This document shows, piece after piece, positions 23,662 to 29,584 of a DNA stretch of 33,242 nt. The DNA is taken from IMG/VR virus record IMGVR_UViG_2703718832_000007, positions 1 to 33,242 of that record, one strand, 5' to 3'. The notes beneath the pieces were generated by a model that had not been told where the DNA came from, ran no database searches, and saw nothing but the letters and a program-made list of their open reading frames with translations. Both the position numbers and the translations under genes were made by a program. Within the stretch, counting starts at the first letter, position 1, and each line of letters begins with the position of its first letter. Source of the stretch: a virus (Duplodnaviria > Heunggongvirae > Uroviricota > Caudoviricetes).

Positions 23662-23968
23662 CTTCTACTCCGGCTTTTTTAGCAGCGAAGCGTTTGATAA
23701 GCGAACCAATCGAGTCAGTACCGATGTAGCCGATGAACACGCTCGTTATATAAGCGAGATTGCTACTTAGTCCGGCGAAGTCGAGAAGGTCACGAATGAA
23801 CCAGGCGATAATGGCGCACATCGTTGCGTCGATTACTGTTTTTGTAAACGCACCGCCATTATACCTGCCGCGAAGGTACGCCATTGCAAACGCAAGGATT
23901 GCCCCGATGCCTTGTTCCTTTGCCGCAAGAATGGCGGCTAACAGGTCATGTTTTTCTGGCATCTTCAT
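23645..23968 (-). CDS. S: Holin S (class I, dual-start S107/S105), lambda-type
   Basis: 107 aa; matches lambda S including the Met1-Lys2-Met3 dual-start motif ([39 protein letters not shown]...). Confidence 0.95.
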
Positions 23969-24294
23969 GTCTTACCCCCAATAAGGGGATTTGCTCTATT
24001 TAATTAGGAATAAGGTCGATTACTGATAGAACAAATCCAGGCTACTGTGTTTAGTAATCAGATTTGTTCGTGACCGATATGCACGGGCAAAACGGCATGA
24101 GGTTGTTAGCGCAACCTCCTGCCACCGCTTTCACGAAGGTCATATGTAGAAGGCCGCAGCATAACTATCACTGATGAATTCAGGATAGCCAGTGGCTACG
24201 GCTCAGTTTGGGTTGTGGTGGTTGGTGCTGAACTCCAACTTGAGGCTACCCATCCTAGCCCGAAGCTAGGTGCTCACCTCTGAGCGTTAGCGCA

Positions 24295-24804
24295 TCAGCC
24301 TGCGCATTCACCACAATTCTTGTTGTAACTTCCGAATATTTTTTCCCTTTCCGAAGTCACAAATTTTATAGCATCCTCTTTGCGTTTAAATGTCTTGAAG
24401 GCCGCAGTTTTTCTATTAACAAAAACACGAGCATGCCAAAGCCTATCTCTCGAGTGGAAACAAACACCACGACAACCAGACCGGTTCCTTTTCGAGGTTA
24501 TTGTGTTCATGTTGTTTTGCGATCTGCTAACAAGCCTAAGATTTGATATCCTGTTGTCGTCTCTTATGCCATTCACATGATCTATTTCTAAGCCGCTATT
24601 TATTTCGCCATTGCACAAAATCCACGCCAGACGATGAGCAAAGTATCTTTTACCTCCTAAAGATATTTGCCTGTAACCGAACGAATTCAGCGAACCAGCA
24701 ATCATGCCAGGCTTAGATCTTCCTGTTTTTACCTTCCACACGAAGATGCCGGTAGATGGATTAAATGACAAAGATTCTTTAATGCGTTCACTTGTTAAAA
24801 GCAT
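24295..24804 (-). CDS. HNH homing endonuclease with AP2-type DNA-binding domain
   Basis: 169 aa; HNH core GLEIDHVNGIRDDNRISNLRLVSRSQNNMN; C-terminal AP2-like GCRGVCFHSRDRLWHARVFVNRKTAAFKTFKRKEDAIKF; located inside the late leader between tR' and S. Confidence 0.8.
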   Translation of the reverse strand: MLLTSERIKESLSFNPSTGIFVWKVKTGRSKPGMIAGSLNSFGYRQISLGGKRYFAHRLAWILCNGEINSGLEIDHVNGIRDDNRISNLRLVSRSQNNMNTITSKRNRSGCRGVCFHSRDRLWHARVFVNRKTAAFKTFKRKEDAIKFVTSEREKIFGSYNKNCGECAG

Positions 24805-25016
24805 TGCGTAAACCTTTTAGAAAGCGAGCCTGTCTCACAGAAAAGCCGCCCGAGAGAGGTCGCCACCTATAACGGCATTTCTCAGGCTCGCTTACTGAAA
24901 GGATCTCGTTAATATGCGCGTGAGATGCGCTGGAGGGATAACAGGAAAGAGCACTGCATGGTTTTACCATTACATCCGAAGATTTATCTGGTGTAGTCAA
25001 TGCTCTTACCTGTTGT

Positions 25017-25045
25017 GCAAATAAAAAAGCCCACAGGCGGTGGGC
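25017..25045 (-). terminator. tR'-like rho-independent terminator of the short late leader transcript
   Basis: Minus strand reads GCCCAC-CGCCT-GTGGGC followed by TTTTTTATTTG; flanking sequence (TTTTTTAT.TGCACAACAGGTAAGAGCATTGA) aligns with the lambda tR' region as I recall it. Confidence 0.65.
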
Positions 25046-25087
25046 TTGTGATGGTTGCTGAATGCAAAAGCGGCAGCATATGTGAAT

Positions 25088-25117
25088 ATTATGGCTAAAT
25101 GGCTAATTGCATGTCAA
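25088..25117 (-). promoter_or_regulatory. Late promoter (pR'-like) with presumed Q-utilisation site
   Basis: Minus strand reads TTGACA, 18 nt spacer, CATAAT immediately after the Q-like stop codon, about 50 nt upstream of the tR'-like terminator. Confidence 0.5.
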
Positions 25118-25613
25118 GGCTTTTAACAGCAACATGCTTAACTTTCTCAACACGTTTACGCATTTTGAAAGCATTTTGCATTGGTTGGTACAAAACAAAT
25201 AACGACGATTTCAGGATGTCGTCAATTTCGTTTCTACAGGTTGCCAGTGAAGGTTTTCTCCATCCCTCGCCACCACGTCCACACATCTTGCGTGGCTTTG
25301 CAGTCGCGTGATAGTAGGATGCAATTGCTCGCTTTGATGAACCATGAGCGTAGTAGCTGAGGAGGATGCCAAAGGCTTTCTTGTCAATGTACATGACGGA
25401 ATCGACGACCTGAGAAATCAACATTCCATCATCATCATTACACATTGGCCTTGTCATAACTCTTCCCGGCTCTACGCTCTCCATGAACTTAGCTATTACG
25501 CTGCTCATACGCTTTTCCAGACGACCTGAATAAACCCATGCGCCCCACAGTTCAAGCCAGCCATTCAGCCAATCGTGCTGTTCTTTGGTGAGGTTTAGTT
25601 CTCTTATGCTCAT
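25095..25613 (-). CDS. Late antiterminator Q, phage-82/PF06530 family (not lambda Q type)
   Basis: 172 aa; central RPMCNDDDGMLISQVVDSVMYIDKKAFGILLSYYAHG matches the conserved RP.C.DDD.M...LL..YY core of Q82-type antiterminators; sits immediately upstream of the late promoter and lysis genes. Confidence 0.75.
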   Translation of the reverse strand: MSIRELNLTKEQHDWLNGWLELWGAWVYSGRLEKRMSSVIAKFMESVEPGRVMTRPMCNDDDGMLISQVVDSVMYIDKKAFGILLSYYAHGSSKRAIASYYHATAKPRKMCGRGGEGWRKPSLATCRNEIDDILKSSLFVLYQPMQNAFKMRKRVEKVKHVAVKSLDMQLAI

Positions 25614-25798
25614 CGTCTTCCCCTCTTGCCCTGTTTGACCATCAGGACGCCGTTAACTATTACGTGACGCTCGCCTTTGCTGTCTCGGTTGTACTTGAGC
25701 ACTGTTCCTCTTGCGCAGGAAAGCATCCTCGCCACTTCGGTCTGATTGCCTCGTGTCTGGATAAGAAGCTCTGGTATCGTTTGAATTGTGGCGTTCAT
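25610..25798 (-). CDS. ninH: NinH
   Basis: 62 aa; IPELLIQTRGNQTEVARMLSCARGTVLKYNRDSKGERHVIVNGVLMV aligns with lambda NinH (IPDMLVEAYGNQTEVARRLKCSRGTVRKYVDDKDGKMHAIVNDVLMV). Confidence 0.85.
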   Translation of the reverse strand: MNATIQTIPELLIQTRGNQTEVARMLSCARGTVLKYNRDSKGERHVIVNGVLMVKQGKRGRR

Positions 25799-26157
25799 GC
25801 GTTCTCCAGTTCGGTGATTTTTATTCCAAGCCGTCCGCCTGGTACTTTCACGCCACGAATTACGCGAATGTCATCGAATTGCTCGTCATCTTCCGCAAAT
25901 CCGGCGTGGATAAGGGAGTCGAGTAAACCTTTCAGGATGTTATCGAGGTCGCGGCGGCGGGAGTCTGGAACGTCTGCGATGACTTTGATGCGGAGTCGTG
26001 ATTTGGTGAAAATGTCTAACTTAAGTTGGCGGATGATTTGCTGAACGTCTTTTCGGTATTTCTGGCCTTTATCGCTTATGTAATATTGGCTTCCCCGTCT
26101 TCGCCAGTAGGTATTCACCGACGGCGGGTATGGAAGCACAAACTGATATTCGTTCAT
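25795..26157 (-). CDS. rusA: RusA-type Holliday junction resolvase
   Basis: 120 aa; LPYPPSVNTYW...DVPDSRRRDLDNILKGLLDSLIHAGF...GGRLGIKITE matches the RusA family pattern (LPWPPSNNRYY...MPDRRRRDLDN...GGRLELTITE). Confidence 0.85.
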   Translation of the reverse strand: MNEYQFVLPYPPSVNTYWRRRGSQYYISDKGQKYRKDVQQIIRQLKLDIFTKSRLRIKVIADVPDSRRRDLDNILKGLLDSLIHAGFAEDDEQFDDIRVIRGVKVPGGRLGIKITELENA

Positions 26158-26432
26158 TGGACAAACACCCTCCCATTGTTAACCAATTTTTTAAGGGTAA
26201 GCATAATGGCCCGATCCATTTCAGCCCTTCGCTCTTCCCTGCTCATATCTCTCCCATTATCAATTCTTGAATGACAATCAACACATAGCGCAGCAGTAAG
26301 GCAATCATCTACTTTAATCCCAACCCCCTTCCCTTCATTTCTGTGAGCGGCCTGAACTCCGTATCTTCCGCAAAGAACGCAAAATTCAATATCCCTTACT
26401 GCCTGAAGCCATTTTTTGCTTCTAAACATCAA
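26154..26432 (-). CDS. DUF1364 / YbcO-like small Cys/His-rich nin-region protein
   Basis: 92 aa; Cys/His spacing (C..C...AH...ALC..CH..ID) resembles E. coli YbcO as I recall it. Confidence 0.55.
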   Translation of the reverse strand: MMFRSKKWLQAVRDIEFCVLCGRYGVQAAHRNEGKGVGIKVDDCLTAALCVDCHSRIDNGRDMSREERRAEMDRAIMLTLKKLVNNGRVFVQ

Positions 26433-26931
26433 TCCCCTCCAAAAAACGTCGGTACGCTGATTTGTTTTTTATGTTGCACACTGTCTGCGCACAAACACCA
26501 AATTCTTTGGCTATATCTCTGTATTTGCCTTTTGATTTATATATTGATTTCACTTGTTCTGGCGTTAGTTTGCAGAAATGATGATTAAACCCATGAACAA
26601 GCAATCCGGAATCAAATCCATGTTTCGCATTTTCTGTTCGCGTTACCCACTCAAGATTTTCAACTTTATTATTAAGTTTATTTCCATCCTTGTGATTAAC
26701 TTCCGGTTTGCCATCTGGGTTATCAATAAATACTTCTGCAACAATTCTGTGAACCATTTTATATGATGGTCTTTTCCCGCCACCTGGATACAGACCGACA
26801 AATGCATATCCTCCTGGTTTAATGCCATGAGATAATTTTTTTGATTTACGGCATGAAATGATGTCTCCATTTTCAGTTACTTTATATATACCCTCAAAGC
26901 CGGGGATATCTTTTTCTTTAACATCACTCAT
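26422..26931 (-). CDS. HNH homing endonuclease (NUMOD4 N-terminal motif, HNH core, C-terminal helix-turn-helix)
   Basis: 169 aa; NUMOD4-like IPGFEGIYKVTENGDIIS; HNH core EVNHKDGNKLNNKVENLEWVTRTEN; AT-rich coding sequence; inserted between the DUF1364 gene and ninF. Confidence 0.8.
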   Translation of the reverse strand: MSDVKEKDIPGFEGIYKVTENGDIISCRKSKKLSHGIKPGGYAFVGLYPGGGKRPSYKMVHRIVAEVFIDNPDGKPEVNHKDGNKLNNKVENLEWVTRTENAKHGFDSGLLVHGFNHHFCKLTPEQVKSIYKSKGKYRDIAKEFGVCAQTVCNIKNKSAYRRFLEGIDV

Positions 26932-27094
26932 CGTCTTCTTCCTCGTACATTGAGCTATTCGGATCGCTCATCAGCTCTGCGCAGCAATCGGAGCACACGT
27001 GAACTTCCAGCACATGCAGCTTCTGACCGCAGTTAGCGCACGTTAAAGCCCGATCGACGCTTTCTTGTTCGTAACTTCGATTTGGGTCAATCAC
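26924..27094 (-). CDS. ninF: NinF (below the ORF-track size cutoff)
   Basis: Hand-translated 56-aa ORF with GTG start: [56 protein letters not shown], closely matching lambda NinF. Confidence 0.8.
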
Positions 27095-27273
27095 CTTGTT
27101 TTCCTCGCACGTTCTCTAAGCCACCGGATATCCCACAGGTGAGCCGTGTAGTTGAAGGTTTTTACGTCAGATTCTTTTGGGATTGGCTTGCGTTTATTTC
27201 TGGAGCGTTTCGTTGGAAGGTATTTGCAGTTTTCGCAGATGATGTCGGTGATACTTCGTCGCTGTCGTCTCAT
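27091..27273 (-). CDS. ninE: NinE
   Basis: From the internal [63 protein letters not shown] is near-identical to lambda NinE (60 aa). Confidence 0.85.
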
Positions 27274-27692
27274 TCGTACCTCCTGTCGGTAAATCTGACA
27301 CCCTGACCAATAGCCCATGCTGTCGTGTACTCAATCAGGCTTGCCATGCGCTTCACGCTCATCTGTGCGCTGCTTTCGCGAATGTTGACGTATTCACCTT
27401 CAAGGCCGGGCAAAACATCAGCTTCCTGCTTTGTTGCCACTGCATGACCGCTTATCAACAAAACCTTCCATTGTTCTGGTTTTAACCATTTGCCGCACCA
27501 TTGAACCTGACTTGCGATATCCGCCAGCATCGCGTGAAATTTTGCGTTCTGGTCAAGGTTGCGCTTGTAGTCAGTAATGCGGATGGTAACTGGCTTGTCT
27601 TTATCGAGTGGTGTTGCGAGGATGGCGGTGATTGCGGCTTGCTGTTGTTGCTTACTCCTGAGGAAAATTGTCTGTTTCATGGAATTCCTCAA
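27270..27692 (-). CDS. ninB: NinB (Orf-family recombination mediator)
   Basis: 140 aa; conserved core [33 protein letters not shown] aligns with lambda NinB (RSLDQNRKLWACLGDVSRQVEWHGRWLDAESWK). Confidence 0.8.
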
Positions 27693-27901
27693 TATGTGTA
27701 AAGGCTATATCCGTTTTTATTTGTCCTGGTGCCATAGCCATATAGGCTCCAGTCATCCTGTTTTCTCTCACCAAAAATATGCTTGCGGTATTCTTCCTGC
27801 TGGCGTCTCCATATTTCCATCATGTCTGGCTGGTTCTTTTCTCGCATTTTTCGAATCTGCTCAAGGATGAACTCTATTTGCTGCTGATTTGTCATGCTCA
27901 C
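27689..27901 (-). CDS. Hypothetical nin-region protein
   Basis: 70-aa ORF packed head-to-tail with the neighbouring genes; no known domain. Confidence 0.45.
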   Translation of the reverse strand: MSMTNQQQIEFILEQIRKMREKNQPDMMEIWRRQQEEYRKHIFGERKQDDWSLYGYGTRTNKNGYSLYTY

Positions 27902-28207: not shown

Positions 28208-29584
28208 TCATACGTCAGCCCCTTGTGCATATCGTCTGCCACGTGCAGCGGGTGCATTTGATGTTGTGCAAATCTGTCTGGCTTCATCCTGGTCACATGC
28301 AACAAAGTGTCCGTTACAGAACCGCTGGTAAACCGTACCAAGCGAGCCAAAACGGTTTTTCGTCACGATGATTTCAGCAAATGGCGCGGCGCTACTGTTC
28401 TCGTCATATACCGCTTCCCGATAGAGCATGATGATTGAGTCTGCGTCCTGTTCAATGCTTCCTGAATCACGCAAATCTGCGTTTGTCGGGCGTTTGTTTG
28501 GTCGCTTCTCAACATCGCGCGAAAGCTGACTCAGGGAGATAACAGGCGTTTTCAGGTCTTTCGCCATCGCCTTAAGGCTTCCTGAGATGTGAGCAATTGC
28601 GAGGTCGTTGCGATCTGCTTTCGGCTTCTCAATCAGGCCAAGATAATCCGCCATGATGAGTGACAGGTTTGGATTTTCCTGTTTGTGCCGTTCTGCGATT
28701 GAGCGAATTTCTTCGACCGATAACCGCGAGGCATCGACTACCCATACATCCAAATCTGCAAGCTGACTCATGCCGTTAGCAACACGCGCCCAGCCCTCGT
28801 CATCCATCGATGCAGGATTTCGCAGCACGCTAACCGACATCCTCCCGGCGTTGGCAATGCTTCGCTCTGCAATCTGCAATGCGCTCATTTCCATTGAGAA
28901 AATCAATACTCCGCGCCGGACGTCAGAACCAGGAATAACGCGGCTTGCAACGCCTTCGGCAATCTTCAGCGCCAGTTCGGTTTTCCCCATACCAGGACGA
29001 GCAGCGATTATCACCAGGTCTTCCGCGTTCATCCCTCCGGTGATGGCATCAAGTTCTTCGATTCCGGTCTTCAGGGTATCTGACTCTTCTCCGTTCCTCA
29101 GACGCCTGTCAAGCGTGTCAGTGTAGTCAGTAATGATTTCCCCTAACCGTACAGGTTTAACCTCGTCACGGGGCTTTCTGATGGCTGAGAGACGCTTTAC
29201 AAGCTCGTCCATCGCCTGACTCGATGTATCGATGGTTCCGCTCTGAATTGGTTCACGCATTTCATCCATGATTTCCAGCACCAGACGGCGGTGATAGTTA
29301 TCCGCGACCATTCCGGCATATCCCTTCAGGTTTGCGGCACTCGGGCAGTTCTTACTGGTCATCAGGATTGACGTGAAATGCTCCTCTCCGCACGCCTCGG
29401 CAACCATCAGCGCGTCGATTAGGTTTCTGTTTCTCGCCTGCTTGCGGATAACCTCGAAGGCTTTCCGGTAGAGCGGAATTGAAAACGCTTCCGGCTCCAG
29501 CGTTGCCAGAACGTCACTGGCAGTTGGTGTTAATCCACCAATCAGCAGGCCACCGATAACGCTCGCTTCGATATCCTGTCTCAT
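28208..29584 (-). CDS. Replicative DNA helicase, DnaB family (P22 gene 12 position)
   Basis: 458 aa; Walker A GMGKT within the RecA-like domain; DnaB-like N-terminal region; downstream of and coupled to the initiator gene. Confidence 0.9.

Follow-up and report, generated by a model that had tools for sequence, protein, structure and literature searches.

The window analysed here (the whole 33,242 nucleotide (nt) stretch of DNA of the IMG/VR virus record IMGVR_UViG_2703718832_000007) is by overall similarity a P22-like (Lederbergvirus) phage or prophage of Escherichia coli, its best overall match being phage Kapi1 (96% identity over 71% of the query). The minus strand carries a lambdoid early-right/nin operon that ends in the lysis genes. 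The present work deals with two overlapping genes found in this operon between ninF and rusA: an HNH gene coding for a putative endonuclease of 169 amino acids (aa) and, immediately downstream, a 91-aa gene related to the DUF1364/YbcO family. The two genes make up a cassette whose spread among lambdoid phages is probably driven by the HNH protein itself, a predicted homing endonuclease similar to I-HmuI of Bacillus phage SPO1. The positions of all features are compiled in Table 1.

The HNH open reading frame (ORF) is intact and starts with ATG. A preliminary description, made by reading the DNA without database searches, had presented its product as a NUMOD4-HNH protein of the homing endonuclease type with a C-terminal helix-turn-helix (HTH), and these assignments were borne out. 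Both Pfam domains score above their cut-offs, NUMOD4 at residues 7-48 (29.2 bits; cut-off 23.4) and HNH_3 (PF13392) at residues 58-102 (42.2 bits, 6e-11; cut-off 24.8), and a weak match to the CENP-B_N HTH covers residues 139-157. The sole significant match in the Protein Data Bank (PDB) is I-HmuI (1U3E), by sequence (phmmer, E=9e-19) as well as by fold (Foldseek, E=4e-10, 165 columns, full length). In the phmmer alignment the NUMOD4 region pairs with I-HmuI from residue 3 on. The two proteins are alike in size (174 aa in I-HmuI), are 29% identical over 165 aligned columns and have the same domain order: an N-terminal beta-sheet/NUMOD4 region, a beta-beta-alpha-metal core, a helical linker and a C-terminal HTH. 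The AlphaFold2 model of the HNH protein, built on 61 homologues (predicted local distance difference test score, pLDDT, 91.5), has beta-strands within residues 6-59, the beta-beta-alpha core and four C-terminal helices at residues 124-132, 137-144, 148-155 and 161-166 (pLDDT of this block 87-96). These helices, the full-length alignment to 1U3E and the weak Pfam match jointly support the presence of the HTH.

Seven residues (H61, R62, N79, H80, N92, N101 and H104) are invariant in the alignment of the 61 homologues. H80 corresponds to H75 of I-HmuI and N101 to its N96, while N79 occupies the position of D74. In I-HmuI, H75 is reportedly the general base and D74 a metal ligand. The assignment to the homing endonuclease type is thus supported by the full-length I-HmuI architecture and by the intact catalytic motif. 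The protein is also matched by the generic "HEase" models of PADLOC (1e-24). The gene is already annotated: identical copies, adjoining NinF, are labelled "NUMOD4 motif-containing HNH endonuclease" in RefSeq, and it appears in the records of phages Dewey and Louie. NCBIfam returned zero matches for any of the three proteins searched. With the features by which the I-HmuI-like HNH_3 group is defined in sequence and structure (His-Me finger group 2 with NUMOD/HTH modules), the HNH protein appears to be a member of that group.

Table 1. Features of the window at and around the nin-region HNH gene.
Feature	Position	Strand	Evidence or remark
Predicted I-HmuI-like free-standing HNH endonuclease gene, 169 aa	26422..26931	-	ORF list, Pfam, PDB phmmer, Foldseek, PADLOC
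NUMOD4 / N-terminal beta-strand DNA-binding region, residues 7-48	26788..26913	-	Pfam, AlphaFold2 model, I-HmuI alignment
HNH_3 beta-beta-alpha-metal catalytic core, residues 58-102	26626..26760	-	Pfam, alignment; N101/H104 at or beyond its end
C-terminal four-helix / HTH DNA-binding domain, residues 124-166	26434..26562	-	AlphaFold2 model, I-HmuI alignment
Linked 91-aa gene, DUF1364/YbcO-like, small His-Me finger type	26154-26429	-	phrog_131, similarity to HK97 gp66
Two-gene cassette, block without nucleotide homology to HNH-less relatives	26158..26922	-	blastn breakpoints
Upstream junction ATGAGTGAT; ninF stop codon overlaps HNH start codon	26923..26931	-	junction alignment
ninF, conserved upstream flank, candidate homology arm	26924-27094	-	Pfam NinF 7.5e-14
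rusA, conserved downstream flank, candidate homology arm	25795-26157	-	Pfam RusA 1e-16
ninE (listed ORF, 75 aa)	27091-27318	-	between ninB and ninF
ninB	27270-27692	-	
DnaB-like helicase gene	28208-29584	-	
ninH	between rusA and Q	-	
Q	25095-25613	-	
Second HNH_3 ORF, 169 aa	24295-24804	-	between Q and holin gene

The tight packing of the HNH gene against both neighbours, as initially described, is confirmed; the overlap with ninF is not of the ATGA type that had been reported. It measures 8 nt (ATGAGTGA), and the overlap with the 91-aa gene is likewise 8 nt (ATGTTTAG) if the latter starts at the ATG in position 26429. From this arrangement the HNH gene appears to be translationally coupled to both neighbours. 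Farther upstream, the ninE start codon is probably located after the one of the listed ORF, at the ATG in ...GGTACGAATGAGA (~27273), leading to a 4-nt ATGA overlap with the ninB termination codon. The overlap between ninE and ninF is GTGA. Coupling of the ATGA type would thus occur at ninB/ninE and not at the HNH junction.

The HNH gene is compositionally foreign. Its GC content is 36.5% and the GC content at third codon positions (GC3) is 27.1%, values to be compared with 50.9% and 56.1% in ninF, and with 48.8% and 53.7% in rusA. The coding sequence is therefore markedly more AT-rich than the flanking genes (GC3 53-57%), as had been noticed at first reading. Only 0.1% of the 510-nt segments along the 33 kb are as AT-rich as the HNH gene and most of these overlap it. 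The 91-aa gene, with a GC3 of 37%, is also below its flanks.

The two-gene block and its distribution

In relatives that lack HNH, the interval from ninF to rusA is filled by other genes followed by a DUF1364 gene of the HK97 gp66 type. The slot contains roi/antirepressor and gp66 in HK97 and Kapi1, and a hypothetical gene (270-nt or 213-nt) and gp66 in mEp235, mEp043 and 683R2. In pairwise blastn comparisons with these phages, homology to the window ends at ...GACGATGAGTGAT (window 26923/26918) and restarts exactly at the rusA ATG (26157). Since homology stops near 26923 and resumes at 26157, the foreign block comprises HNH and the entire 91-aa gene (26158-26922). The original view of HNH as a lone insertion between resident ninF and DUF1364 genes is not borne out. 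The ninF flank is 94-97% identical in HNH-less phages, and at least the 3′ end of ninF is found upstream of all HNH copies that are 98-100% identical.

The left border of the block has features of its own. The first three codons of HNH (MSD, ATGAGTGAT) also open the unrelated genes located after ninF in mEp235, mEp043 and 683R2. Starts of this sequence overlapping the ninF termination codon were seen at window 26923-26931 and in loci L002 (position 2250), L003 (1858) and L006 (2609); at the same position, HK97 roi begins with ATGAATGAG and CurroJimenez ninG with ATGGCTAAA. The ninF-overlapping start marks a gene boundary that is conserved and serves as a junction for the exchange of cassettes.

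The product of the 91-aa gene matches phrog_131 (1.5e-30), is 29% identical to HK97 gp66 (BLASTP, E=4e-7) and carries a CxxC...H...CxxCH pattern, features that link it to the YbcO family. It departs from that family by a score of 19.9 bits against Pfam YbcO/DUF1364 (PF07102), below the gathering cut-off of 29.9, and by a phmmer search of the PDB that gave nothing meaningful; PADLOC did not match it. The protein is most simply seen as a diverged DUF1364/YbcO relative that forms a distinct 91-aa subfamily. Its first annotation as a DUF1364 product is supported as to kinship by phrog_131 and gp66, with a Pfam score below the cut-off. DUF1364/YbcO is classed as a His-Me finger nuclease fold, and its representative from the E. 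coli DLP12 prophage (PDB 3G27) is a small Cys/His-rich His-Me finger protein whose gene is positioned beside rusA and Q in lambdoid prophages (PMC5714182).

The HNH gene was found at 99.8% identity in 2 out of 50,697 phage records, those of the Lederbergvirus phages Dewey and Louie. The flanking DNA is common to 422 records, which include these two. In E. coli, 34 out of 5426 complete genomes carry the gene (97.8-99.8% identity), nearly always beside NinF. HNH is thus polymorphic for presence or absence at a fixed position, rather than being at the same site in all related nin regions, and it is always located directly 5′ of the 91-aa gene.

Beyond these copies, the identity of the closest HNH proteins drops to 58-75%. 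Genomic contexts were inspected for homologues from E. coli (P0003), Salmonella (P0016), Klebsiella aerogenes (P0019) and Citrobacter koseri (P0022), and in an IMG/VR scan. All homologues with at least 60% identity are followed immediately by a homologue of the 91-aa gene, with an overlap of 8-14 nt. Upstream of the pair the neighbours differ, being NinF and a hypothetical gene, a DNA methylase, or DUF1367. On the downstream side there is a gene that codes for RusA or is Q-like. HNH relatives below 55% identity, which belong to other phage groups, never have the 91-aa partner. The identities of the two genes track each other between lineages. The proportion of synonymous differences (pS) between lineages is 0.62-0.9, i.e., saturated, and the proportion of nonsynonymous differences (pN) is 0.09-0.28. 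The ratio of nonsynonymous to synonymous substitution rates (dN/dS), where computable, is 0.04-0.07 for HNH, a range that is usable for the three closest pairs (L010-L039, L013-L016 and L016-L017) while the distant, saturated lineages yield only pN/pS, and it is 0.01-0.19 for the 91-aa partner. Because synonymous sites are saturated and pN and dN/dS are low, the pair is old in enterobacterial lambdoid phages, has been kept by selection and was not imported recently from an organism of low GC content.

The 91-aa gene is also found alone. HNH is lacking in 18 of the 20 IMG/VR loci with a 91-aa-type gene at 76-80% identity, in two GTDB genomes carrying such a gene (the scan with the 91-aa protein returned these 2 loci only), and in three E. 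coli genomes (L007-L009) that have the window-type allele (94% identity in aa, 97% in nt over the shared stretch). HNH-less loci have a divergent ninF-like gene directly upstream and their protein starts with MAIYRS... instead of MFRS.... When the 91-aa proteins are placed in a neighbour-joining tree, lineages with HNH are intermingled with lineages that lack it.

Divergence, junctions and damaged copies

Twenty loci with the window-type cassette were found in different mosaic backgrounds, distinguished by their Q alleles and by the genes upstream of ninF. Across these loci the divergence from the window is 0.72% for HNH and 0.96% for the 91-aa gene, and reaches 2.5% for rusA, 1.6% for ninH and 5.6% for the 3′ end of ninF. 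In the 20 backbones, divergence is thus 3-8 times lower in the cassette than in the adjoining sequences, a contrast that is to be taken as descriptive of sequences that are phylogenetically non-independent. The recent acquisition proposed in the preliminary description is compatible with these figures (0.7-1.0% against 1.6-5.6%) if it is understood as a recent spread among lambdoid backbones; it does not hold for the pair itself, whose saturated pS speaks for an old origin.

A second type of footprint is found at the 5′ end of the gene. In about 19 of the 26 closest HNH homologues, an N-terminus of the DUF1364/gp66 type is fused in frame to the start of NUMOD4. Several of these N-termini are exactly the first 15 residues of HK97 gp66 (MANLRKEARGRECQV), and others are variants such as MADLRKAARGRECKL and MSKLTKLARGRDCQV. 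The fused 45 nt of locus L010 are identical to HK97 gp66 at 41 of 45 positions, and nearly all the remaining locus has no detectable similarity to HK97. The window copy has no gp66 fusion and starts at the ninF-overlapping ATG.

A different junction is present in a prophage of E. coli QML220601 (L140), which is 97% HK97-like across ninB-dam-ninE-ninF-roi and the first 29 nt of gp66. There follow a 24-nt remnant of the 3′ end of ninF, HNH and the 91-aa gene (97.8% identical to the window), and the sequence is HK97-like again exactly from the rusA ATG. Nucleotides 30-291 of HK97 gp66 are replaced by the cassette, with the left join placed within a short homeologous stretch (ACGNGGNAGA). Two IMG/VR loci, L035 and L036, are of the same type. 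The QML220601 prophage and HK97 thus form a pair of filled and empty alleles that share both flanks at 97% identity.

Degraded forms of the HNH gene were also identified. A 330-nt internal deletion (window 26441-26770) leaves an ORF with NUMOD4 only in L043 (1480-1730) and in E. coli AH19B041 (H114/H142), and an insertion of the IS3 family interrupts the gene after nt 141 in L060 (3141 onward). Such forms are what would be expected in the life cycle of a homing endonuclease gene.

Probable homing and competing explanations

We consider it probable that HNH is a free-standing (intronless) homing endonuclease of the I-HmuI type, a selfish gene that moves among lambdoid phages as one half of a two-gene cassette. 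This reading is derived from sequence comparison, and enzymatic activity, target site and cleavage-driven spread are its predictions. With no promoter of its own and coupled to its neighbours within the delayed-early nin operon, HNH would be made during lytic growth. The protein would then nick or cut the nin region of a related HNH-less phage or prophage, most likely near the 5′ end of the DUF1364/YbcO-type gene preceding rusA, because both independent junction types (gp66 nt 45 and nt 29) fall there. Phage recombination functions would mend the break by copying from a genome that carries HNH; the homology arms would be rusA on one side and, on the other, ninF or the initial ~45 nt of the resident DUF1364 gene. 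HNH would be copied together with the 91-aa gene, presumably too diverged in its DNA to be a target and able to substitute for the lost resident DUF1364 gene. The active intronless homing attributed to this phage lineage in the preliminary description is thus plausible, with circumstantial support from the low divergence of the cassette relative to its flanks.

This proposal has parallels in known systems. The gene of I-HmuI resides in a group I intron that interrupts a DNA polymerase gene; the window HNH gene differs by being free-standing, with no intron detected, and by the D74 to N79 substitution in its product. The T4 genes segF (beside gene 56), segG (beside gene 32) and mobE (beside nrdB) are likewise free-standing nuclease genes inserted between conserved genes and are sporadic among relatives. 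SegF is said to carry out intronless homing at gene 56. For T4-type free-standing endonucleases, two papers describe intronless homing, marker exclusion, cleavage of the neighbouring allele of nuclease-less phages and co-conversion of flanks (PMC2790892, PMC2988022). The 91-aa gene would correspond to the resistant, co-converted neighbouring allele of these systems. The cassette of the window departs from them by its temperate lambdoid host, by a cleavage that is predicted, and by the ~29% protein identity between the 91-aa gene and the displaced one, which goes beyond an immune allele with a few single nucleotide polymorphisms. In lactococcal Skunavirus, I-HmuI-like free-standing HNH genes vary in number and location among close siphophages and cluster by insertion site, marker exclusion having been shown for some of them; they belong to another phage group and host, and the abstract mentions neither a constant partner nor a fusion to a target remnant (PMC12724721). 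In Salmonella phage epsilon34, gene 31 is joined in frame to the N-terminal part of a resident gene, a scar like the gp66::HNH fusions (PMC2629481). That gene is part of the ea (early-left) region and its resident partner is another one, and the window copy is unfused.

Several observations weigh against homing and are best discussed together with its most serious competitor, which we regard as rather unlikely: that the pair is an ordinary lambdoid mosaic cassette, swapped by general recombination at gene boundaries, to whose dissemination the nuclease contributes nothing. That the nuclease moves the cassette is deduced, and lambdoid nin regions are mosaic in any case, with exchanges at gene boundaries, where the blastn breakpoints of the block are exactly situated. 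The ATGAGTGAT start shared by unrelated cassettes shows that the slot exchanges cassettes in the absence of any nuclease, so that low divergence and multiple backbones could come from ordinary recombination and selection. The 91-aa allele is moreover present in HNH-less loci that have a different ninF allele, and phage recombinases are reported to promote exchange between diverged sequences (PMC2327257, PMC3945230). Long-term purifying selection and constant synteny fit a useful, domesticated gene pair as well, and the pair may be kept for harming competing phages or prophages or for aiding DNA processing. That the gp66 remnant is always at the same place could be due to a single old fusion passed on by descent and not to repeated homing. 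An exact empty site for the window-type junction, with HK97-type ninF joined directly to the window 91-aa allele, was not found, the HNH-less loci L007-L009 carrying a different ninF allele. Finally, the metal ligand D74 of I-HmuI is an Asn in the HNH protein; the site is probably functional all the same, since the whole clade has N79.

On the other side, passive exchange does not readily account for a protein that is a full-length homologue of a proven homing endonuclease, nor for the 3-8 times lower divergence of the cassette relative to its immediate flanks in 20 backbones. Nor are the two independent junction types at a gene boundary: both fall within the 5′-terminal 29-45 nt of the resident DUF1364 gene. 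The copies decayed by deletion and by insertion of an IS (insertion sequence) element argue against strong functional selection in prophages.

Homing would also accommodate a more specific and rather tentative proposal, that of a natural "cleave-and-rescue" cassette. HNH would destroy the resident YbcO/gp66-type gene near codons 10-16, and the 91-aa gene would be its uncleavable isofunctional replacement, nuclease and rescue allele having co-evolved as one mobile unit across phages of E. coli, Salmonella, Klebsiella and Citrobacter.

The sequence-specific HNH protein, whose homologue I-HmuI is a nickase, and the DUF1364-like His-Me finger protein might be imagined to act jointly, cutting both strands or processing recombination intermediates alongside NinB and RusA, in which case the pair would be an operon-like unit rather than a selfish gene with a hitch-hiker. 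This two-nuclease partnership, which we hold to be improbable, is in line with the adjacency and the 8-14 nt overlaps that are invariant in HNH homologues of at least 60% identity from four genera, with the co-divergence of two genes that are both under purifying selection, and with the nuclease fold of DUF1364/YbcO (PMC5714182). It is at odds with the frequent occurrence of DUF1364-type or 91-aa-type genes beside rusA without HNH (HK97, Kapi1, 18 of 20 IMG/VR loci, L007-L009), with the missing partner of HNH relatives below 55% identity and with PADLOC matches limited to the generic "HEase" model.

Other candidates were rejected. An intron-encoded endonuclease is not supported: the ORF overlaps both neighbours by 8 nt, and in 23900-27800 the Rfam search (E<=0.1) revealed neither a group I/II intron nor any other family, a chance microRNA (miRNA) match excepted. 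No direct or inverted repeats as expected for a transposon or IS-type insertion were found in 26000-27300. The hypothesis of a moron with promoter and terminator of its own was discarded, consensus matches being at or below the expectation from shuffled sequence. A component of a defence system was dismissed on the grounds that PADLOC matches HNH with generic "HEase" models only and the 91-aa partner with none. A packaging HNH protein of the HK97 gp74 type, aiding terminase cleavage at cos, is effectively refuted: lambdoid phages including HK97 encode such proteins, and Dewey has one annotated beside its late genes, but the gene studied here is a nin-region gene, flanked together with its partner by ninF and rusA and ~5 kb away from the terminase genes, belongs to the NUMOD4 + HNH_3 family with a C-terminal HTH and not to the PF01844 type, is absent from most close relatives, and is carried by a P22-like phage, a group that packages its DNA by a headful mechanism.

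Free-standing homing endonucleases are well studied in T4-like phages and in some lytic phages of Gram-positive bacteria, and much less in temperate lambdoid phages, whose mosaicism is usually attributed to general recombination. A literature search yielded no description of an obligate linkage between HNH and the 91-aa gene, of gp66-remnant fusions or of the HK97/QML220601 pair of empty and filled alleles, and the genome announcement of phages Huey, Dewey and Louie does not mention HNH. The cassette offers a tractable example, in which a nuclease gene is invariably accompanied by a stand-in for the gene that it apparently displaces and natural filled and empty alleles are available. The homing hypothesis is directly testable with cultured phages already described, Dewey and Louie carrying HNH, HK97 and Kapi1 lacking it. 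If the nuclease drives the replacement, a part of nin-region mosaicism would be nuclease-driven and not passive, and cleave-and-rescue gene drives would have a natural counterpart in the cassette. Otherwise, what remains is an annotated HNH gene in a variable slot.

Further HNH genes and a conserved non-coding stretch

The second HNH protein of the window also matches HNH_3 and I-HmuI (1.4e-4), and is 30% identical to the nin-region HNH protein over the catalytic core (E=2e-5). The two had been viewed as unrelated members of two different families; they belong instead to the same HNH_3/I-HmuI group, in different subfamilies. The second gene has a GC content of 40.6% and a GC3 of 38.8%. It had no near-identical DNA match in the 50,697 phage records or in the 5426 complete E. 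coli genomes, IMG/VR L034 alone carrying it, and is thus much rarer than its nin-region counterpart. Additional, different HNH_3 genes are present within a few kb in related nin/late-regulatory regions: L011 (1996-2544), L038 (1286-1474), L125 (4591-5079) and L135 (4710-5219). Those of L038, L125 and L135 are 39-43% identical to the nin-region HNH of the window (tblastn), and the gene of L011 is identified by its Pfam HNH_3 match only. The presence of several HNH genes in one lambdoid genome is not unusual.

Downstream of Q, a non-coding stretch of ~120 nt (window 24810-24932) gave only a chance miRNA match in Rfam. It is 98% conserved in HK620, phi80, HK106, CurroJimenez and other phages, and may belong to a conserved late-promoter/qut leader.

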